From positions 1-31,238 of IMG/VR virus record IMGVR_UViG_3300037310_000072: 31,238 bases of DNA; one strand, 5' to 3'. The DNA is from a virus. Taxonomy: Duplodnaviria > Caudoviricetes. Below the pieces are notes generated by a model, which made no database searches, had not been told where the DNA came from, and was given only the letters and a program-made list of their open reading frames with translations. Positions 7,879-15,625 of the stretch are shown piece after piece. The position numbers and the translations under genes are program-made. Each line of letters begins with the position of its first letter. Position 1 is the stretch's first letter.

Positions 7879-10305
7879 TCACAGGTCGAGCGCGCGCGGC
7901 GCGCTGGTGGTGGTGGCGGTGGACTCGGCGGCGCTGGCGTTGCGTGCGCGGCCGACGGCCCATTGGCGGATGGCGGTGATGCGCTCGCTCGCGGTCTTGG
8001 CGAGCGGCACGGTGCGCTCGGCGGCCTGTTGCAGATCGGCCGTGAACACAGGGCGTGCGTCATCAGCGAACGCTGCGAACATCGCGTCAGGCACCAGGGC
8101 GGCCAGCTCGGCGCCGGTGAACTCGCGCGTGGCGGCGGCGATCGGCGCCAGGTCGATGCCCTCGGGGCCGATGCCGTGTGCGGTCAGCGCCGCGCGCAGG
8201 ATCGCCTCTCGCTCGGTCGCGTTGGGCAGATCGACAAAGAACACTTCGTCGAAGCGGCCCTTGCGCAGCAGCTCGGGCGGCAGCGCCGACACGTCGTTGG
8301 CGGTCGCCACCACGAACACGTCGCCCGCGCGGTCCTGCATCCACTGGAGCACGGCGCCGAGCGCGTCGGCGCTGGTGCCGCCGTCGGCGGCGCCCTGCGT
8401 GGCGCCGGCCAGGGCCTTCTCGATCTCGTCGAGCCACAGGACGCACGGGGCGACCGTCTCTGCCACCTTGAGCGCCTTGCGGATGTTGCCCTCGGACTCG
8501 CCGACCCACTTCGAGCGCAGCGCGCCCATGTCCAGGCGCAGCAGCGGCATGCCCCATGCGGTCGCCACGGCCTTCGCACTGAGCGACTTGCCGCAGTTGT
8601 GCACGATCGCGCCGCCGTTGACCACGAAATTGGGCAGCGGCTCGGCCATCGTGATGTCGAATGTCTGTCGAATGCCGATGGGCTCAATGCTGGCAACGAG
8701 CGCCGCTCGCGTGTACTGAGTCCCAAAGTTCGCGGCGGCATCAGCACCATGCAGGCGCGCGTGCTCATCGTGCGGAACGACAACGAGGTTGCCAGGGTCG
8801 TCGTTCATCGAGTCCTCATCGGCGTGGTGCACGTCGTACTCGGATGGCAGGTAGGCCAGCGTCGCGGCGCGCGCCTCATCTGACTTCAATGTCTCGATGA
8901 ACGACTCCAAATCCATGCCGTTCATTCGCGCCTCGATGACCAGCCGGGCGCGCGTGGTGCGCTGGTATTCGTACCGCTTGTCTCCGTCGATGACGACCTT
9001 GCGCCATGCGATCGGGTGGTAGCGCAATCCATCGATCACCACGCGCTTGCGGTGGGTGCGCGGCTGCCCGCTGGCCTGCGGCAGCATGCTCCCGCGCACC
9101 AGAATGCTCGAATGGCCTGCTTGCAGCTCCTGCGCTTGCGCCCATGTTCCATCGGCCAGCAGAATCGGATGGTCGCTCGTGCATTCGACTTCGCTGCCGC
9201 ATTCGGTGCGCACGCGCACGCAGGGTTTGTAGCCCGTTGGCATCACCGCCGTGACCTCGTTGTAAACCAGAGCGCCGGTCTGACTGTTCCAGGACTGGAG
9301 GTAAGTCGGCACGTCGGCCGTCCAGGGGCGGGAAGAACTCGCCTGCCCGTTGAACTTGGCGCAGAAAACCTCGATGGGCAGTGATCGCCCGGCTGCCGAT
9401 ACGCGCTTGCCGCGCAGGTACGCGACACGGGTGCCTGCCGCCAAGCACCCAGGCACGCCGACCAGCATCACCCCCTTGGGCGCCGGCAGGCCGTAGGCGC
9501 GCGCCTTGGCCGAGAACGCGGCGCGGCGCTGCATCAGCCAGCCCTTGAGCACTTCCAGCCCGCCGACGGCTGCCAGTCCTGCCGGGTGCGGGTCGAACCA
9601 CTCCAACACGCGCTCGCGCGAGATGACGCGGCGCTTCTCGCTGGCAACCGCGGCAGGATCGATCCGGCGCGCGGTGATGAGCGAGCGCGCGAAGGTGCTC
9701 TGCGCTTCCTCGGCGGTCAGGCCCACAGCGGCGTCGATCGCGGCATCGCGCGTGCCGTTGGGCGCCGCGCTGTCGCGCACGTCCTCGGGCAGCGCCCGCA
9801 CCGCGGCGTCGAGCAGCGCGGCGATCTCGGCGCGGTCGGGCAGCGGCAAGTCAACGACGATCGCATGCCCTTGCAGCTCGGGCGGCACTTCGGCGCTCGG
9901 CGTCACCACGATCATGGCGCGCGCTTGGTCGCGCGGCTTCGATGGCAGATCGCGGCACAGGGAGCGCACCGCGCGCACCACGGTCGGGTCGCGCAGCCAG
10001 GGCGGCAGATCGCGCAGCACGTAGACGCAGCGCTCTGTGCGGTCGCGGATGGCGGCCAGCGCCTGCGCCGGGTCGGTGCAGCGCGAGTCGATCGCCTGTC
10101 CGTCGCCGCGCGTCAGGCCGGTGGCGCAGTCCCACATCGCCACGTCGTAGACGGCCGAAGCGGTGGCCTCGATCAGCACGCGCTCGGCGCGGGCCTCCTC
10201 GCGTGTCACGAGCCAGATCAGCGGGTTGCGGGCGCGCAGCAGCGCGGCGATGTCGGCGGCGCACTTGGCGCCGGCCGCGGCGGTGGTGGCAGCAGCGGCG
10301 CTCAT
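7879..10305 (-). CDS. Ycf46-like AAA+ ATPase, intein-containing
   Basis: VGGLEVLKGWL, Walker A GVPG/CGKS split by the intein, SKWVGESE pore loop, Walker B VLWLDEIEK, ATAN...LPPELLRKGRFDE SRH; degenerate N-terminal AAA-like domain. Confidence 0.92.
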   Translation of the reverse strand: MSAAAATTAAAGAKCAADIAALLRARNPLIWLVTREEARAERVLIEATASAVYDVAMWDCATGLTRGDGQAIDSRCTDPAQALAAIRDRTERCVYVLRDLPPWLRDPTVVRAVRSLCRDLPSKPRDQARAMIVVTPSAEVPPELQGHAIVVDLPLPDRAEIAALLDAAVRALPEDVRDSAAPNGTRDAAIDAAVGLTAEEAQSTFARSLITARRIDPAAVASEKRRVISRERVLEWFDPHPAGLAAVGGLEVLKGWLMQRRAAFSAKARAYGLPAPKGVMLVGVPGCLAAGTRVAYLRGKRVSAAGRSLPIEVFCAKFNGQASSSRPWTADVPTYLQSWNSQTGALVYNEVTAVMPTGYKPCVRVRTECGSEVECTSDHPILLADGTWAQAQELQAGHSSILVRGSMLPQASGQPRTHRKRVVIDGLRYHPIAWRKVVIDGDKRYEYQRTTRARLVIEARMNGMDLESFIETLKSDEARAATLAYLPSEYDVHHADEDSMNDDPGNLVVVPHDEHARLHGADAAANFGTQYTRAALVASIEPIGIRQTFDITMAEPLPNFVVNGGAIVHNCGKSLSAKAVATAWGMPLLRLDMGALRSKWVGESEGNIRKALKVAETVAPCVLWLDEIEKALAGATQGAADGGTSADALGAVLQWMQDRAGDVFVVATANDVSALPPELLRKGRFDEVFFVDLPNATEREAILRAALTAHGIGPEGIDLAPIAAATREFTGAELAALVPDAMFAAFADDARPVFTADLQQAAERTVPLAKTASERITAIRQWAVGRARNASAAESTATTTSAPRALDL
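8596..9447 (-). mobile_element. Intein (284 aa) with HNH endonuclease domain
   Basis: Starts CLAAGT, block B ECTSDHPI, block F FDITM...NFVVNG, ends VHN followed by Cys+1. Internal DVHHADEDSMNDDPGNLVVVPHDEHARLH. Confidence 0.93.
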
Positions 10306-10448: not shown

Positions 10449-10602
10449 CGTGTCCACCTTTTCCGAGGGGCGGTGTGCCCCTCTACAGGTCAGCCGAACA
10501 TACGGCCATGACAGGATTCAACCATGGTTCGCGGCTGTTCGTCAACTACAGTTTCGACCCCAGTTGCGCCGCGCTCGGGAACTGTGGTTGAATACCACTC
10601 CC
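10449..10602. promoter_or_regulatory. Divergent control region with three AAC-N4-GTT operator-like sites
   Basis: AACCATGGTT 10520-10529, AACTACAGTT 10544-10553, AACTGTGGTT 10580-10589; partial GACCCCAGTT 10556-10565. Point of divergence of the two arms. Confidence 0.7.
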
Positions 10603-11302: not shown

Positions 11303-11343
11303 GCGACAAGACCTTGATCTCCTTCTGGCGCACCCAGCCATGA
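11299..11343 (+). CDS. 14-aa bridging mini-ORF (MSDKTLISFWRTQP)
   Basis: ATGA overlaps with both the upstream stop and the initiator start. Confidence 0.45.
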   Translation: MSDKTLISFWRTQP

Positions 11344-12404
11344 GCACCTCACAGCCGTTGCCTGATCCGATGGTCCCTGCCGAGGTCGATCTGCGCGGGC
11401 TTGAGTACATGCCGCTGTTGGGCGCCAAGCTGTTCGCGAGCGACTTCGACCTGGAGGCCACGGACGCCGAATTCCGGCGCGGCCTGCGCCTGTGGTGGGC
11501 CGCCTGGAACCAGGTGCCGGCCGGCAGCCTGCCCGCTTCGGAGCGCGCCCAGGCCAAGCTCGCAGGCTTTGAGGACGAGACGAGCGCGAGCTGGAAGCGG
11601 GTCAAGCGGCGCGCGCTCGACGGCTTCTTGCTGTGCTCGGACGGCCGGCTGTACCATCCCGTGATCGCCAGCCAGGCCGTGATCGCGTGGGAGAAGCGGC
11701 AAGAGGACCGCGACAGGCGCGCCAACGAGGCCGATCGGCAGCGGCACGTCAGGGCGCAGAGGAGGGAGCTGTTCGAGCAATTGAGGCAGGCCGGGATCAG
11801 GCCAAAGTACGACACGCCGCTGAGCGAGCTGCGGGAACTGGTGGCCCAGCATGCATCGCAACCTGTCACGCCACCTGTCACTGTGACAGCACCTGTGACC
11901 GTCACACCACCAGTCACAGAACCAGTCGCGCAGACAGTACCCGTGACCGTTACGCAGACAGACACGGCTAAGACGGGACGAGACGGGAATGGAATACAAC
12001 AGCCAATACAGGGTAAGCCCGCGCCTTATCAGCACTTACCCTTGGATGCCGAGGCCCAGGCGGGCGCTTTCGACCCCAACCCGGGGCCGATTCCAACCCC
12101 GGCAGGGCAGGCTTGTCGAGCCATGCGGGCCGTCGGAATCACGGCGGTCAACCCGTCCCACCCGGCGCTGATCGCGCTGCTGGAAGCCGGAGCCACCGTG
12201 CCAGAGTTCATCGCCGCAGCGCAGTCTGCGAGGGACAAGCGCGACCCATTCGCCTACGTCCTGGCGACGGTCGCGGGGCAGCGCAAGGACGCTGCGGCGA
12301 TGGCTGCGACGGTGCATCGCGGACCCCTGCCGAACCGTCAGGAGGCCATCGAACGGCGCAACATGGACATCGCGGAGCGATGGGCCGAAGGAGCTGATCC
12401 GTGA
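11340..12404 (+). CDS. Phage replication initiator, DUF1376/YdaU-like (lambda O analogue)
   Basis: DLRGLEYMPL...LWWAAWNQVPAGSLP...LCSDGRLYHPVI; central PVT-repeat linker; position after the cro-like gene. Confidence 0.8.
   Translation: MSTSQPLPDPMVPAEVDLRGLEYMPLLGAKLFASDFDLEATDAEFRRGLRLWWAAWNQVPAGSLPASERAQAKLAGFEDETSASWKRVKRRALDGFLLCSDGRLYHPVIASQAVIAWEKRQEDRDRRANEADRQRHVRAQRRELFEQLRQAGIRPKYDTPLSELRELVAQHASQPVTPPVTVTAPVTVTPPVTEPVAQTVPVTVTQTDTAKTGRDGNGIQQPIQGKPAPYQHLPLDAEAQAGAFDPNPGPIPTPAGQACRAMRAVGITAVNPSHPALIALLEAGATVPEFIAAAQSARDKRDPFAYVLATVAGQRKDAAAMAATVHRGPLPNRQEAIERRNMDIAERWAEGADP
11861..11953. repeat. GTCAC/GTGAC repeat cluster, putative iteron origin
   Basis: Multiple direct and inverted GTCAC copies including palindrome CTGTCAC-T-GTGACAG 11875-11889, followed by an A-richer stretch. 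Confidence 0.6.
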
Positions 12405-12431
12405 CACCACAGCTGCCGGCATGAGGCAAGC

Positions 12432-12496
12432 GCCTAACGCCGGAATTGAGGGGCGAGGCCCGCAGGGCCGAGTCCCTCTCGAATGACCTGTTCGGC
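12432..12496 (-). repeat. attC-like site 1
   Basis: + strand GCCTAAC-GCCGGA-ATTGAGGGG...CCCTCTCGAAT-GACCT-GTTCGGC; 6/5-nt spacers; unpaired base in TCGAA. Confidence 0.8.
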
Positions 12497-12524
12497 TTGG
12501 TGCCGGAGCGAAAGGAACGATGGA

Positions 12525-12968
12525 ATGCTTGCACTGAGTATTCGCCAGCCCTGGGCAAGCCTGATCTTGAAGGGTGGCAAGGACATCGAGAACCGCGACT
12601 GGCCCACAAAGTACCGCGGGCGCATCCTGATCCACGCGGCCAAGGGCATGACCCGCGCCGAGCACGAGGACGCGATTCACTTCGCGGTGCAGGCGATCCA
12701 GGCCGACCCGCGCAACAAGGATGCGAACAGGCGCACCACGCTGCGCGACCTGGGCTTCGACTTCGACGCTCTGCCGCGCGGCGGCATCGTGGGCAGCGTG
12801 GAGATCACCGCATGCGTGGCCGACAGCGCGTCGCCGTGGTTCGTGGGCAAGTACGGCTTCATGCTGCGCGACCCGAAGCCGCTGCCGTTCACGCCGTGGA
12901 AGGGGCAACTCGGCTTCTTCGACGTGCCTGAGGCGGCCCTGACGCAGCCTGCCGAGCTGGCCGCGTGA
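12525..12968 (+). CDS. ASCH domain protein
   Basis: ALSIRQPWASLILKGGKDIENRDWPTKYRGRILIHA...GGIVGSV...KGQLGFF. Confidence 0.92.
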   Translation: MLALSIRQPWASLILKGGKDIENRDWPTKYRGRILIHAAKGMTRAEHEDAIHFAVQAIQADPRNKDANRRTTLRDLGFDFDALPRGGIVGSVEITACVADSASPWFVGKYGFMLRDPKPLPFTPWKGQLGFFDVPEAALTQPAELAA

Positions 12969-12969
12969 A

Positions 12970-12996
12970 GCCGAACGCTGCCGGTAACCGGCCGCC
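12970..12996 (-). repeat. attC-like half site 2 (partner arm missing)
   Basis: GCCGAAC-GCTGCC-GGTAACCGGCCGCC just after the ASCH stop; no matching arm seen before 13395. Confidence 0.55.
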
Positions 12997-13090
12997 GTCA
13001 GGCGGGACCCCTCAGCGACGGGACAAACCAACTTTGTGAGAAGCACTACACCAGCCAAGAGAACGGCCTGCTGCGCGACTGGGGCACGGC

Positions 13091-13222
13091 GTGAGCAATA
13101 CGCAGGCGCTGAGCGAGATCGGCGCTGCGGCGTCGGAATACGTGCACAGCGGGCAAGCCCTGCGGGTGCGCGAGATGACGACCGAGGAAGCGCACCACAT
13201 CGGCTTCGCGCCTGCGACATGA
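13091..13222 (+). CDS. 43-aa hypothetical protein
   Basis: Not in ORF track. MSNTQALSEIGAAASEYVHSGQALRVREMTTEEAHHIGFAPAT; ATGA overlap with the next ORF. Confidence 0.4.
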   Translation: MSNTQALSEIGAAASEYVHSGQALRVREMTTEEAHHIGFAPAT

Positions 13223-13446
13223 TGGAGACCGAGCGCCATCCCACACCCGCGCGCTGGCACGCGCCGCACCCGCAGCAGCCGACGCGCCCGCTGTGCGGCA
13301 CCGTTGGGGAAGACGGCAACCCTACGCACCGAGTTGCGAAGCAGATCGCAGTGACGTGCAGGCGCTGCCTGCGGATGTTGGAGCGCAACAAGACGCCTAA
13401 CGCCGCAGTTGAGCGGCCGGAACGGTCCGCTCGAACTGCCTGTTAG
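13219..13446 (+). CDS. Small zinc-binding protein reading through attC-like site 3
   Basis: WH...PLCG...VTCRRC; stop is the TAG within GTTAGGC. Alternative start at GTG 13036. Confidence 0.55.
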   Translation: MMETERHPTPARWHAPHPQQPTRPLCGTVGEDGNPTHRVAKQIAVTCRRCLRMLERNKTPNAAVERPERSARTAC

Positions 13447-13448
13447 GC
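13395..13448 (-). repeat. attC-like site 3
   Basis: - strand GCCTAAC-AGGCA-GTTCGAGCGGACCG-TTC-CGGCCGCTCAAC-TGCGGC-GTTAGGC: R''/L''/L'/R' layout with two unpaired bases. Confidence 0.9.
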
Positions 13449-13473
13449 CCAACGGTGAACGGAGGCACAGACG

Positions 13474-13623
13474 ATGGCATGCCCAAAGTGCGGTTGCAAG
13501 ACCGTGTACCAGTTCGATGACGAGGACGACCCGCAGGACGACCGGCTGCAACGCTGCGCAGCCTGCGGAGAAGTGTTCGACCTTGACGACCACGCGGAGG
13601 AAGACGATGACGACATGCCCTGA
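13474..13623 (+). CDS. 49-aa acidic zinc-ribbon protein
   Basis: Not in ORF track. MACPKCGCKTVYQFDDEDDPQDDRLQRCAACGEVFDLDDHAEEDDDDMP; GGAGG RBS. Confidence 0.7.
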   Translation: MACPKCGCKTVYQFDDEDDPQDDRLQRCAACGEVFDLDDHAEEDDDDMP

Positions 13624-14038
13624 GTGCAACGACACCGGAGAACGCGACAGCGGAGGAATGCACCCTTGGGGAGAGCCCGTGTACCTACCGTGCGACTGCA
13701 AGGATGCCGAAATAGGCCGACGCTGGCGCGAGGACAACAGCCTGCATAAGTGGTTTCCGATAACCGCTGAGCGGCTGGCGGCGCTGGAGGCCAAGAATGC
13801 AGAGTTGACGCGAGAGGCGCACGAATGGTGGACGGCCTGCGCTGACGCGACGAAGACGCAGGAAGAACTGGCGATGATGGTGCGAATGCTGACCAGCAGC
13901 CTGAAGCGGCATTGGCCGCACGCGCCACAGCCTGGCGACTTGCCAAGCCGCGCGATGGATCTGCTGCGCAGGCACAACCTGATGGGTTCGCCGCTGCGCG
14001 ATGAGAGCAACAACCTTGGCCCGCAACAAGGGGCCTAA
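13607..14038 (+). CDS. Hypothetical protein with N-terminal CxxC...CxC and coiled coil
   Basis: GGAGGA RBS; stop TAA lies within the CCTAAC core of site 4. Confidence 0.7.
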   Translation: MTTCPECNDTGERDSGGMHPWGEPVYLPCDCKDAEIGRRWREDNSLHKWFPITAERLAALEAKNAELTREAHEWWTACADATKTQEELAMMVRMLTSSLKRHWPHAPQPGDLPSRAMDLLRRHNLMGSPLRDESNNLGPQQGA

Positions 14039-14101
14039 CGTTCCGGTTGAGGCGGGGCCGACGGTACTCCGTTGGACCTCGCCTCGAACCGGGGGTTAGG
14101 G
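14033..14101 (-). repeat. attC-like site 4
   Basis: + strand GCCTAAC-GTTCCG-GTTGAGGCGGGGCCGACGG-TACT-CCGTTGGACCTCGCCTCGAAC-CGGGG-GTTAGGG. Confidence 0.88.
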
Positions 14102-14147
14102 CGCTGGTGCCGAAGCGTGACCATGTTTGCGTGTTACAAAATAGTTG

Positions 14148-14175
14148 TTGACGCCGGCGGTTGCTGTGCTACAGT
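14148..14175 (+). promoter_or_regulatory. Sigma70-like promoter inside cassette
   Basis: TTGACG-16 nt-TACAGT with TG extension, in an AT-richer patch. Confidence 0.6.
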
Positions 14176-14205
14176 AACTACATCAACAACGCACCGGAGA
14201 ACAGC

Positions 14206-14334
14206 ATGCTCTACGAACACATCGCCACCTACACCACCCAAACCGAGGCGGATATCTTTGTCCGTTGCTGCCCAAAACTTTCCACCTCATACCGGGTTGG
14301 CCCCGGCCAATACCAAGTGTGGGTGGCACTCTAG
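14206..14334 (+). CDS. 42-aa hypothetical protein
   Basis: Not in ORF track. MLYEHIATYTTQTEADIFVRCCPKLSTSYRVGPGQYQVWVAL; GGAG RBS, downstream of the promoter. Confidence 0.55.
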   Translation: MLYEHIATYTTQTEADIFVRCCPKLSTSYRVGPGQYQVWVAL

Positions 14335-14340
14335 CCACCC

Positions 14341-14358
14341 GGCCCGAAAGGGCCTTGT
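14341..14358 (+). terminator. GNRA hairpin, weak terminator-like
   Basis: GGCCC-GAAA-GGGCC-TTGT right after the stop. Confidence 0.4.
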
Positions 14359-14452
14359 ATCGGGTTCGATCGGTGCGCGTTATCGAATGGGTTGAACGGC
14401 TCCGGCTGGCCCAAGCACCCCGGACAACGTAACCGGGACTTTTGGAGACGCA

Positions 14453-14641
14453 ATGAGCAGCAACGACAAGAACAAAGGCGGGCGCCCGCCAGCACCGCCA
14501 GGCCAGCGCCGGGTAAATGTGCCGCTGCGCCTGCCGGAATGGCTTGTGCAGTGGATGGCAGAGCAGGCCGAGACGCCTGCGGAATTGATCGAAGCCGCAT
14601 TGCTGAAGGCGCACAAGCTGCGCCCGCCTCGTGCGCCCTAA
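14453..14641 (+). CDS. Ribbon-helix-helix DNA-binding protein (BrnA/CopG-like)
   Basis: GGRPP...RRVNVPLRLPEWLVQWM...AELIEAALL; GGAG RBS; stop lies within CCTAAC. Confidence 0.7.
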   Translation: MSSNDKNKGGRPPAPPGQRRVNVPLRLPEWLVQWMAEQAETPAELIEAALLKAHKLRPPRAP

Positions 14642-14660
14642 CAGGTGATATACACACCTC
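14633..14660 (-). other. Terminal simple recombination site (attI-like or secondary site)
   Basis: - strand GTGTATATCACCT-GTTAGGGCGC; core present, no hairpin arm. Confidence 0.55.
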
Positions 14661-14684
14661 ACAAGCTCTGCTAGAGTTCCTCGC

Positions 14685-15002
14685 ATGCCATACCGCCGCA
14701 CCAAGAAATACAGCGCCGAGCGCCTCGCCGCGATGCGTGCCGGCAAAGACCGCGCCTGCATGGAGCGCCCGGCCCCGGACTACCCGCCGGATCTGCCCGA
14801 CCTGCGCATGCGCATCACGATCACGCGGTACGACTACGGAGAAGAAACGCATGTGTTTGAGCTTCGCAAGTCGCGCCGCGTGGATCAGTTCCGCGTGACG
14901 GTGGACGGAAAGCCGCTGCGCGGGCAGATCGGGCTGACACGCATCCTGGACATGCTGCGCAAGGCCACCCCGCGCGCGATCAGCCCGAGGGCAGCATCGT
15001 GA
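14685..15002 (+). CDS. Basic hypothetical protein abutting the array end
   Basis: 105 aa; TG-extended TAGAGT 7 nt before ATG and no SD; GTGA overlap with the next gene. Confidence 0.75.
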   Translation: MPYRRTKKYSAERLAAMRAGKDRACMERPAPDYPPDLPDLRMRITITRYDYGEETHVFELRKSRRVDQFRVTVDGKPLRGQIGLTRILDMLRKATPRAISPRAAS

Positions 15003-15625
15003 CCGACGCCGATCGGAAGCCGTTCGCTGTCCTGCTGTCGCAGGCGCTGGCGTTCTACCGCCAGGACGTGAGCGAGTTCGCGCTCGGCGTTTGGTGGGCC
15101 GCGTGCCAGCCCTTCGACCTGGAGCAAGTGCGCAAGGCGCTCACAGCCCATGCACTCGACGCCGAGCGCGGCCGATTCGCGCCCAAACCAGCCGACATCG
15201 TGCGCGAGCTGCAAGGCACCGTCACCGACCGCTCGCTGGTCGCTTGGGGTAAGGTCTTGGAGGCCATGCGCGTGGTCGGCGCGTACCGCAGCGTGGCCTT
15301 CGACGATGCGGCGATCCACAGCGCGATCGAGGATATCGGCGGATGGGTCGCGATCTGCCGCACCGCGCTCGACGAGCTGCCGCACCTGCAACGCCGCTTC
15401 TGCGAGTCGCATCGCGTGTACTCGCGCCGGCCGGCGGCGACGCATCGGCCTCACCTACCGGGCGAGTTCGAGGCGACCAACGCGCTCAACGGCCGGCGCA
15501 TCGACGCGCCCACGCTGATCGGCGACGAGAGCGCGGCGCGCGCCGTGATGCTGGCCGGCTCGTCCGCGCCGCGCATCGGCATCACGCCCGCCTCGCAGGC
15601 GCTCGCGCTGGAGGCTGCGCGATGA
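14999..15625 (+). CDS. DUF6475-containing replication partner (lambda P/loader position)
   Basis: FAPKPADIV...AWGKVLEAMRVVGAYRSVAFDDAAIHSAIEDIGGWVAIC. Confidence 0.75.
   Translation: MTDADRKPFAVLLSQALAFYRQDVSEFALGVWWAACQPFDLEQVRKALTAHALDAERGRFAPKPADIVRELQGTVTDRSLVAWGKVLEAMRVVGAYRSVAFDDAAIHSAIEDIGGWVAICRTALDELPHLQRRFCESHRVYSRRPAATHRPHLPGEFEATNALNGRRIDAPTLIGDESAARAVMLAGSSAPRIGITPASQALALEAAR

Follow-up and report, generated by a model that had tools for sequence, protein, structure and literature searches.

A probable inverted integron-type cassette array at an attI-like site beside a small gene in a phage genome fragment

IMG/VR record IMGVR_UViG_3300037310_000072 (31,238 nt, 49% complete), the whole of which was analysed and is called the window here, carries an island of small genes between an O-like replication initiator gene and a P-like gene. 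The island very probably is an array of integron-type cassettes that carry their genes on the plus strand and their attC sites on the minus strand, are stacked next to an attI-like site (14636-14668) consistently linked to a gene for a 105-amino-acid (105-aa) protein, and are likely moved by an integron integrase (IntI) acting in trans. We call the attI-like site together with the 105-aa gene the platform. We demonstrate the geometry and strand of the sites, the pairing of cores across cassettes, the recurrence of the units, the position of breakpoints at AAC and a natural variant that lacks the two newest cassettes.

Geometry, strand and core pairing of the attC sites

Sites were called with an attC detector of our own, which requires a 7-nt core, a 5-nt spacer, an 8-nt L'' box with an extra base at position 4, a 7-nt L' box, a 6-nt spacer and a second core; the cores tested were RYYYAAC for R'' and GTTRRRY for R'. 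This geometry (7/5/8...7/6/7, extra base at L'' position 4) is that of the aadA7 site listed in supplement Table S3 of PMC9892861. The detector called three sites in the window (sites 1, 3 and 4; Table 1), all on the minus strand, and had no matches in 10 shuffles; the half-deleted site 2 was not called. A contig of run X1 spans the half-deleted form of site 2 without differences. A general repeat finder did not pick up the hairpin sites, and as a control the published TJE1 array was called on the strand of its annotated genes. Three intact attC sites thus lie within 1.7 kb of each other in a 31-kb record (flanks of 12 kb and 16 kb) that has no match to the tyrosine recombinase family PF00589, which places the array among clusters of attC sites lacking integrases (CALINs). 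The features of a complete integron, intI beside attI and cassette genes co-oriented with attC and read from a Pc promoter, are not found in it.

The attC hairpins are on the minus strand and the cassette genes on the plus strand, an opposition that extends to other phages. A gene ending at the site lies on the opposite strand in 170 and on the same strand in none of 275 distinct phage or metagenome attC sites. When one pattern was searched in both collections, it gave 49 opposite and 0 same among 85 viral sites, and 2 opposite and 16 same among 164 bacterial sites. The codon-model gene caller left 146 of the 164 bacterial attC sites uncalled, missing most bacterial cassette genes, and for this reason a measure based on the longest open reading frame (ORF) was added: by this measure 75 of 127 bacterial cassettes are same-strand and 8 opposite, and 21 of 55 viral cassettes are opposite and 7 same-strand. 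The A>T skew was tried as another strand test and rejected, as it did not separate phage from bacteria (54/55 vs 91/127 'opposite'). Inside the 275 attC sites we found 117 stop codons of the previous gene and 31 called starts of the next (e.g. in L030, L044 and L052), so that the attC arms are translated as protein ends.

The extra L-box base and the 5- and 6-nt spacers, like all the breakpoints observed, put the G/TT crossover at the plus-strand AAC cores, between the second A and the C. The preliminary description of this stretch had proposed insertion of circular cassettes by crossover at G/TT; the insertion of circles of the integron kind stands, with the crossover at the plus-strand AAC and not the plus-strand GTT cores. 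Crossover at AAC defines the mobile units as 12438-12975, 13401-14038 and 14039-14641, each owning the hairpin on its left. This corrects the unit limits given previously and adds a damaged fourth unit and the 105-aa platform gene, both absent from that description.

The motifs described as bounding the cassettes are indeed exact reverse complements, of 9 bp (12490/12976), 9 bp (13442/14039) and 10 bp (14095/14642), and in no case does the complementarity extend outward. When the three GTT cores were compared with the five AAC cores, all against all, the longest pairing was always with the far end of the core's own unit (9, 9 and 10 bp). The match across a cassette exceeds that within a site, as had been stated: within-site runs are 3, 7 and 6 bp at sites 1, 3 and 4. 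The claim that each cassette is bounded by its own pair holds for the three units but had passed over the fourth (12976-13400), whose AAC core has no partner. Cross-cassette pairs of at least 9 bp occur in 51 of 100 distinct phage or metagenome cassettes, within-site pairs of this length in 5 of 100, and random pairing of the same cores yields 6.2%; under this null, three of three window cassettes with such pairs are expected about once in 4000. Bacterial cassettes, used as a control, show the same pattern (86/127 cross-cassette, 12/127 within-site, 2.9% random).

Rebuilding the circles and folding their junctions gave better structures than the array forms, with the R box fully paired: -20.2, -25.6 and -35.2 kcal/mol, compared with -15.4, -21.6 and -30.7 in the array (a gain of 4-5 kcal/mol). 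Site 1, which has a variant core, adopts the full attC fold only in its circle form. Simple terminator hairpins, against which the core pairing had been advanced, do not explain junctions that fold better as circles or units that recur with the same ends and other neighbours. Between 12300 and 15100 we detected neither a plus-strand terminator-like site nor a minus-strand promoter-like site, and the terminator reading was dropped.

Table 1. Features of the island and its boundaries (window coordinates)
Feature	Position	Strand	Evidence or remarks
Replication initiator (O-like) gene, left boundary of the island	11340..12404	+	phrog_22470 replication protein, E 5.6e-49
Putative remnant of the array's right half (minus reading)	12405..12437	.	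33 nt from O stop to last crossover; from the sequence
attC site 1, of the ASCH cassette	12432..12496	-	crossover 12437/12438; score 10.0 minus vs 8.2 plus
ASCH cassette (own attC left, gene on plus)	12438..12975	-	same ends, 9-12 bp pairs and other neighbours in L003, L008, L010
ASCH-domain gene	12525..12968	+	PF04266, E 1.5e-7, over cut-off
attC site 2, half deleted	12968..13010	-	AAC core, spacer and first arm kept; second arm and GTT core gone (sequence)
Damaged fourth unit	12976..13400	-	short plus ORFs 13091-13222 and 13219-13446; weak PHROG matches only; no core pair
attC site 3, of the two-gene cassette	13395..13448	-	crossover 13400/13401; score 11.9 minus vs 9.4 plus; 7/7 L-box pairs
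Two-gene cassette	13401..14038	-	zinc-ribbon gene 13474-13623 and 143-aa gene 13607-14038, both plus; recurs in L380-L382
attC site 4, of the ribbon-helix-helix (RHH) cassette	14033..14101	-	crossover 14038/14039; score 11.2 minus vs 8.9 plus
RHH cassette, first (newest)	14039..14641	-	42-aa ORF 14206-14334, 62-aa RHH-like gene 14453-14641; recurrence (see text)
attI-like site (site 5)	14636..14668	-	conserved motif: AAC core (crossover 14641/14642), 18-nt spacer with L-box-like stretch, ACAAGCTC box; no hairpin
105-aa basic protein, in position and direction of intI (pointing away from array)	14685..15002	+	116 homologues; 267 clusters at 50% identity
P-like gene (DUF6475, weak helicase-loader similarity), right boundary	14999..15625	+	family scans

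Recurrence, natural variants and genomic setting

Each of the three units was found again in other viral contigs, its ends unchanged and its neighbours different, and not, as the opposite outcome would have it, always beside the same neighbours or with unrelated ends. The ASCH unit has the same ends and other neighbours in 3 of 19 homologous loci, with pairs of 10, 9 and 12 bp; one further homologue has the left end only, and the rest have no cores. The two-gene unit keeps its left end in all three loci, with core pairs of 12 and 11 bp in L380 and L381 and an extra base in the right core of L382. A core pair of at least 9 bp bounds the RHH unit in 21 of 32 homologous viral loci, in L379 by way of a core changed on both sides. 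No homologue of the damaged unit was found among the loci collected, and neither site 3 nor the RHH unit had a match in GenBank phages.

A before-and-after state of the array is seen in a contig of run X1 that joins 13395 to 14637 through six shared letters ending in AAC and skips 1241 nt. The skip runs exactly from the site 3 crossover to the site 5 crossover, a length predicted by the minus reading, so that the two newest, attI-proximal cassettes are gone together with their left hairpins. Depth in run X1 is 5.6 on the cassette-bearing contig and 9.1 on the flanks; these depths do not tell how common either form is. No circle junction was seen in the contigs of the four runs examined, from which rare forms are dropped.

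A second pair of states is provided by L356 and L371, which have the platform (98%) and most cassettes in common. A 283-nt cassette, 100% identical in the two, lies in the middle of the array in L356 and at the docking site in L371, along with its left attC. In L356 the site is occupied by the RHH unit, which in L371 stands four cassettes off. Another cassette is absent together with its left attC. Neither record (82% and 22% complete) has a PF00589 match.

The contents of the cassettes are small. The zinc-ribbon gene has Pfam matches below cut-off only, and the 62-aa RHH-like gene has no Pfam, NCBIfam or PHROG match, its label being that of the preliminary description. A promoter scan found a sigma-70-like promoter at 14148-14175 in the RHH cassette. 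RHH-type cassettes (L348-L379; units of 507-1117 nt) combine a constant 40-nt leader and promoter on the left with the RHH gene on the right and differing genes between them, a layout resembling a capture vehicle inside a cassette. The ASCH unit of L003 ends at a half attC (8435-8460) whose first arm corresponds to that of the full site 5' of the ASCH unit in L008 (7914-7990).

Family scans identify the record as a lambdoid-type phage fragment (cro-like gene, replication initiator, DUF6475, NinX, RusA, terminases, P22-like portal and capsid). The island lies directly 5' of the P-like gene in none of 20 viral relatives of that gene; in 14 of the 20 a called gene ends at the P start and has the C-terminal NRQEAIE motif of the window's initiator. 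The 2.6 kb between the O-like and P-like genes would thus be an insertion. The 6-mer CGTGAC occurs at both ends of the island, at 12397-12405 (the O stop, preceded by a ribosome-binding site) and at 14996-15003 (the P start); the repeat suggests a start-stop overlap of O and P as the putative entry point. Elsewhere in the window, an AAA ATPase gene (7879-10305, minus strand) has an intein-like insertion with an HNH domain (Intein_splicing below cut-off, HNH_3 over cut-off), and an inverted repeat with AAC/GTT ends 5' of the cro-like gene (10516-10593), which the detector does not call as attC, probably belongs to an operator region. A search of the window against Rfam gave three weak matches, all under gathering scores and none relevant.

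The attI-like site and the 105-aa gene

Site 5 is not an attC hairpin. It has only a weak fold and is an attI-like docking site: an AAC core followed, after 18 or 19 nt, by a (G/A/T)CAAG box shortly before a start codon. This arrangement precedes the 105-aa gene in 52 of 52 distinct contexts and is found at 7 of 243 other gene starts; both spacings were allowed, and 29 of 98 matches have 19 nt. The contexts comprise 14 viral and 43 metagenome loci obtained by protein alignment together with additional loci, with five truncated gene pieces and three loci lacking upstream room excluded. With a matrix built without the window's site, site 5 ranks first of the window's 664 AAC sites. The link between site and gene holds down to about 45% protein identity, across loci of 40-69% GC and with unrelated downstream genes. 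These include, by inspection, P-like, excisionase-integrase, terminase, portal, head morphogenesis and lysis genes, so that the platform sits at many genomic places.

Minus-strand attC sites lie within 4 kb upstream of 25 of the 32 platform sites that have at least 500 nt of room, and no plus-strand site does. Receipt of cassettes at G/TT, by which an attI is defined, is seen in natural variants: of 40 right halves, 9 adjoin different left neighbours in different contexts, the switch falling at the core, and the L356/L371 pair and the X1 joint agree with this. In one contig the platform site is duplicated (L071, 4293 and 6342; also L072, 2471, and L073), and after one copy the 105-aa gene is cut down to its first 36 codons. 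Upstream of these sites no attC was detected.

The 105-aa protein has no Pfam, NCBIfam or PHROG family and no profile match to IntI. Its model (pLDDT 89) consists of a basic N-terminal helix, four strands and a further helix. Foldseek returned no match at E 0.001, the best VIA Z score was 4.3, the best E value in a sequence search of the PDB was 0.25, the Atlas held no usable feature match and a word-index search found no longer form. A DNA-binding domain of the AP2 or integrase arm type, a three-stranded sheet with a helix, is a candidate affiliation; the model has four strands ahead of its last helix. GenBank phages and four bacterial genomes gave no match to the protein, so that no cultured host was found among them. 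In two proteins (P0159 and P0203) the 105-aa domain stands C-terminal to an HNH_3 nuclease domain, and DNA-binding domains of HNH enzymes are located C-terminal to the nuclease. The 105-aa protein may, as a tentative reading, be a putative DNA-binding accessory of the site that acts at the GCAAG box; a passenger role is at least as likely. If the reading were true, no earlier case would be known of an integron with a dedicated accessory factor encoded by the element itself.

Source of the integrase, alternative explanations and known systems

Integron integrases do occur among these phages. A scan recovered 30 viral loci with IntI-like proteins, two of which were tested and pass TIGR02249, and 2 of 50 array records encode a true IntI. 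AAC-N3-AATTCG stands just before intI in 25 of 29 viral IntI loci. All 21 with upstream attC have the inverted layout, with attC on the minus strand, 64 genes on the plus and 1 on the minus strand; intI, attI and attC keep the bacterial geometry, and the cargo alone is flipped. Under the 105-type matrix the attI sites of phage IntI score 4.7 bits, compared with -8.1 for attC and -11.6 for random AAC sites, and three of four bacterial attI candidates score 2.8-7.1. The two kinds of site differ in what follows the core: in the phage IntI attI sites another AAC comes about 32 nt further along, in the 105-type site the GCAAG box at 18-19 nt. Accessory direct repeats, DR1/DR2, are described for attI1-type sites (PMC8946536). 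In L255-L284 the attI of the phage IntI has four boxes (the second AAC about 32 nt on and further GTTAC boxes inside intI), and IntI is often followed on the same strand by a second gene of about 300-430 aa. One phage record, KX853513 (L384, 4680-8813), has an IntI-like gene followed on its own strand by four attC-like sites, a co-oriented integrase layout. An IntI tree with 19 phage rows in the starred clade and 7 bacterial rows was not used as evidence, its seeds being phage-biased and several rows broken.

No PF00589 match was found in 7 of 10 records that are at least 90% complete, so that an enzyme in trans would be the simplest reading. A cassette would be excised as a circle when two sites recombine through one crossover at their AAC, which joins both cores into a perfect R box, and would be re-inserted at the attI-like site, leaving the newest cassette beside the 105-aa gene. 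The enzyme would likely be the IntI of the host or of a co-infecting phage, many related phages encoding IntI in the same slot. The cassette genes would face the phage early transcript running from cro through O and so would be expressed without an integron Pc promoter.

Shuffling by another route is unlikely. The attC sites might be there by descent and the units now be exchanged by phage single-strand annealing recombinases through short shared cores or leaders, not by IntI; the record encodes a YqaJ exonuclease (Pfam scan) and no integrase, most near-complete records have no PF00589 match, RHH units differ from one another in cargo and in attC interior, and the X1 joint shares six letters. 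Against annealing, all mapped recent breakpoints (the one X1 joint, L356/L371 and nine shared right halves) are located at the AAC core, and the GTT cores and the arms, which are shared to the same degree, have none; the core pairing kept across cassettes needs a circle intermediate. Rather less likely still is a recombinase other than IntI, whether its gene lies in the half of the genome that the record lacks or the 105-aa protein works together with an Xer-type enzyme of the host. Some platform records do have other phage integrases (4 of 14 in one scan; PF00589 occurs in 4 of 19 other records with the 105-aa gene, by inspection as ordinary phage integrases, most of these records being fragments), and IntI and the 105-aa gene are mutually exclusive in our sample; the sites, though, are textbook IntI substrates, the docking site is similar to the ones next to true intI genes, PF00589 is matched in neither of two platform records that are 78-82% complete, and the 105-aa protein has no profile similarity to IntI. 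Hardly credible at all are canonical plus-strand cassettes, each a gene followed by its own attC with crossover at the plus-strand GTT: the core pairing, symmetric in itself, fits either strand, but the extra base and the spacers fit the minus strand only, site 5 has no hairpin, and the positions of the joints and the breakpoints at AAC contradict it.

The role of the 105-aa gene is a separate matter that would leave the cassette mechanism unchanged. That the gene is a passenger is quite plausible, if a little short of probable: the attI-like site would have arisen once in its leader as a secondary site of the attG type, or the gene would have replaced a deleted intI, the GCAAG box being the promoter or operator of the gene itself. 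Searches assigned the protein to no family or fold and found it no partner, most arrays lack the gene, and cassette insertion by IntI occurs at numerous attG sites in genomes (10.1101/2022.09.11.507474). This has to be set against the 52 of 52 contexts with a fixed spacing of 18-19 nt, maintained at about 45% identity, at 40-69% GC and with unrelated downstream genes, and against the absence of the 105-aa gene from all 30 IntI records, five of which are at least 90% complete.

Several observations weigh against movement of the units by IntI at the platform. The full core pair is absent in 16 of 19 ASCH and 11 of 32 RHH homologues. Twenty RHH units show 18 distinct left 20-mers with a mean identity of 51%, compared with 89-97% inside the units; and among five pairs with near-identical bodies (264 contexts), one shares only its own attC, none only the neighbour, two both and two neither. 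Recombination of the top strand at R'', which IntI performs at a low rate (PMC5027507), would swap attC interiors and keep the core pair, and is a candidate cause of the RHH attC variation; alternatively, cassettes may be put together anew from shared leaders. There are the seven same-strand calls among 55 viral cassettes and the failure of A>T skew to separate phage from bacteria. The window record, 49% complete, has no tyrosine recombinase (PF00589), and the bacterial attI candidate of L105 scores -2.9. The 105-aa gene is present in none of 36 other array or ASCH records, and the platform thus accounts for some arrays only. Finally, the X1 joint is a single contig with 30 letters on its short side and 6 nt shared, from a run that may be the window's source; it could possibly have arisen by short-homology deletion or come from a related phage.

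Integron-type movement of these cassettes would give the mosaicism of small early phage genes a site-specific mechanism, together with natural before-and-after states. The antisense layout would split the cassette pools of phages and bacteria, a phage cassette being silent when facing Pc in a host integron, and the reverse. Phages may run a mirror-image integron economy of their own, with a minimal platform in which attI and a 105-aa DNA-binding protein replacing intI would recruit or activate a borrowed IntI and spread as a 400-nt array-seeding module; we consider this possible but not probable. Active attI sites without an integrase, for which current tools cannot search, are marked by the 105-aa gene. 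For most integrons attI is not known (Cury 2016, PMC4889954), and an additional factor is proposed for V. cholerae attIA (PMC8946536). The 105-aa platform makes it testable whether CALINs are worked in trans and which accessory factors attI sites need.

Our literature search, which covered text outside subscription papers, figures and the Dryad annotation file, found no account of antisense phage cassette arrays or of an attI tied to a small gene. Phage CALINs have been published, and phage attC sites were shown to be substrates of IntI1 (Qi et al. 2023, PMC9892861); like the window, they have at least two attC sites, no intI nearby and small accessory cargo. The available parts of that paper do not remark on genes opposing attC, and describe neither a platform of attI and a small gene nor reshuffling between phages. 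One of its 17 CALINs, MW202573 (L385, 2069-3738), has attC sites opposite the annotated genes by our detector. TJE1, from the same paper, is canonical by the detector. The window has an attI-like site that has been used.

With bacterial integrons (Nivina 2016, PMC5027507; Cury 2016, PMC4889954) the array shares the attC geometry, a single crossover at AAC, the position of the newest cassette at attI and a gene in the intI slot that points away from attI. It differs in that its genes are antisense to attC and point to attI, the orientation not expressed in bacteria, and in having neither intI nor Pc, with the 105-aa protein in the slot. The inverted integron-integrase group of Treponema (Cury 2016, PMC4889954) is also a mirror variant, with intI and cassette genes on one strand; there intI is flipped relative to attC, whereas in the phage IntI loci the genes are flipped and intI, attI and attC keep the bacterial geometry. 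Secondary attG sites likewise receive insertions by IntI outside a cognate integron, but they are scattered chance sites (10.1101/2022.09.11.507474), whereas the window's site is a conserved one that has been reloaded repeatedly and goes with a single gene family. The inverted layout and the used, integrase-less attI platform are an addition to the known kinds of integron and CALIN.

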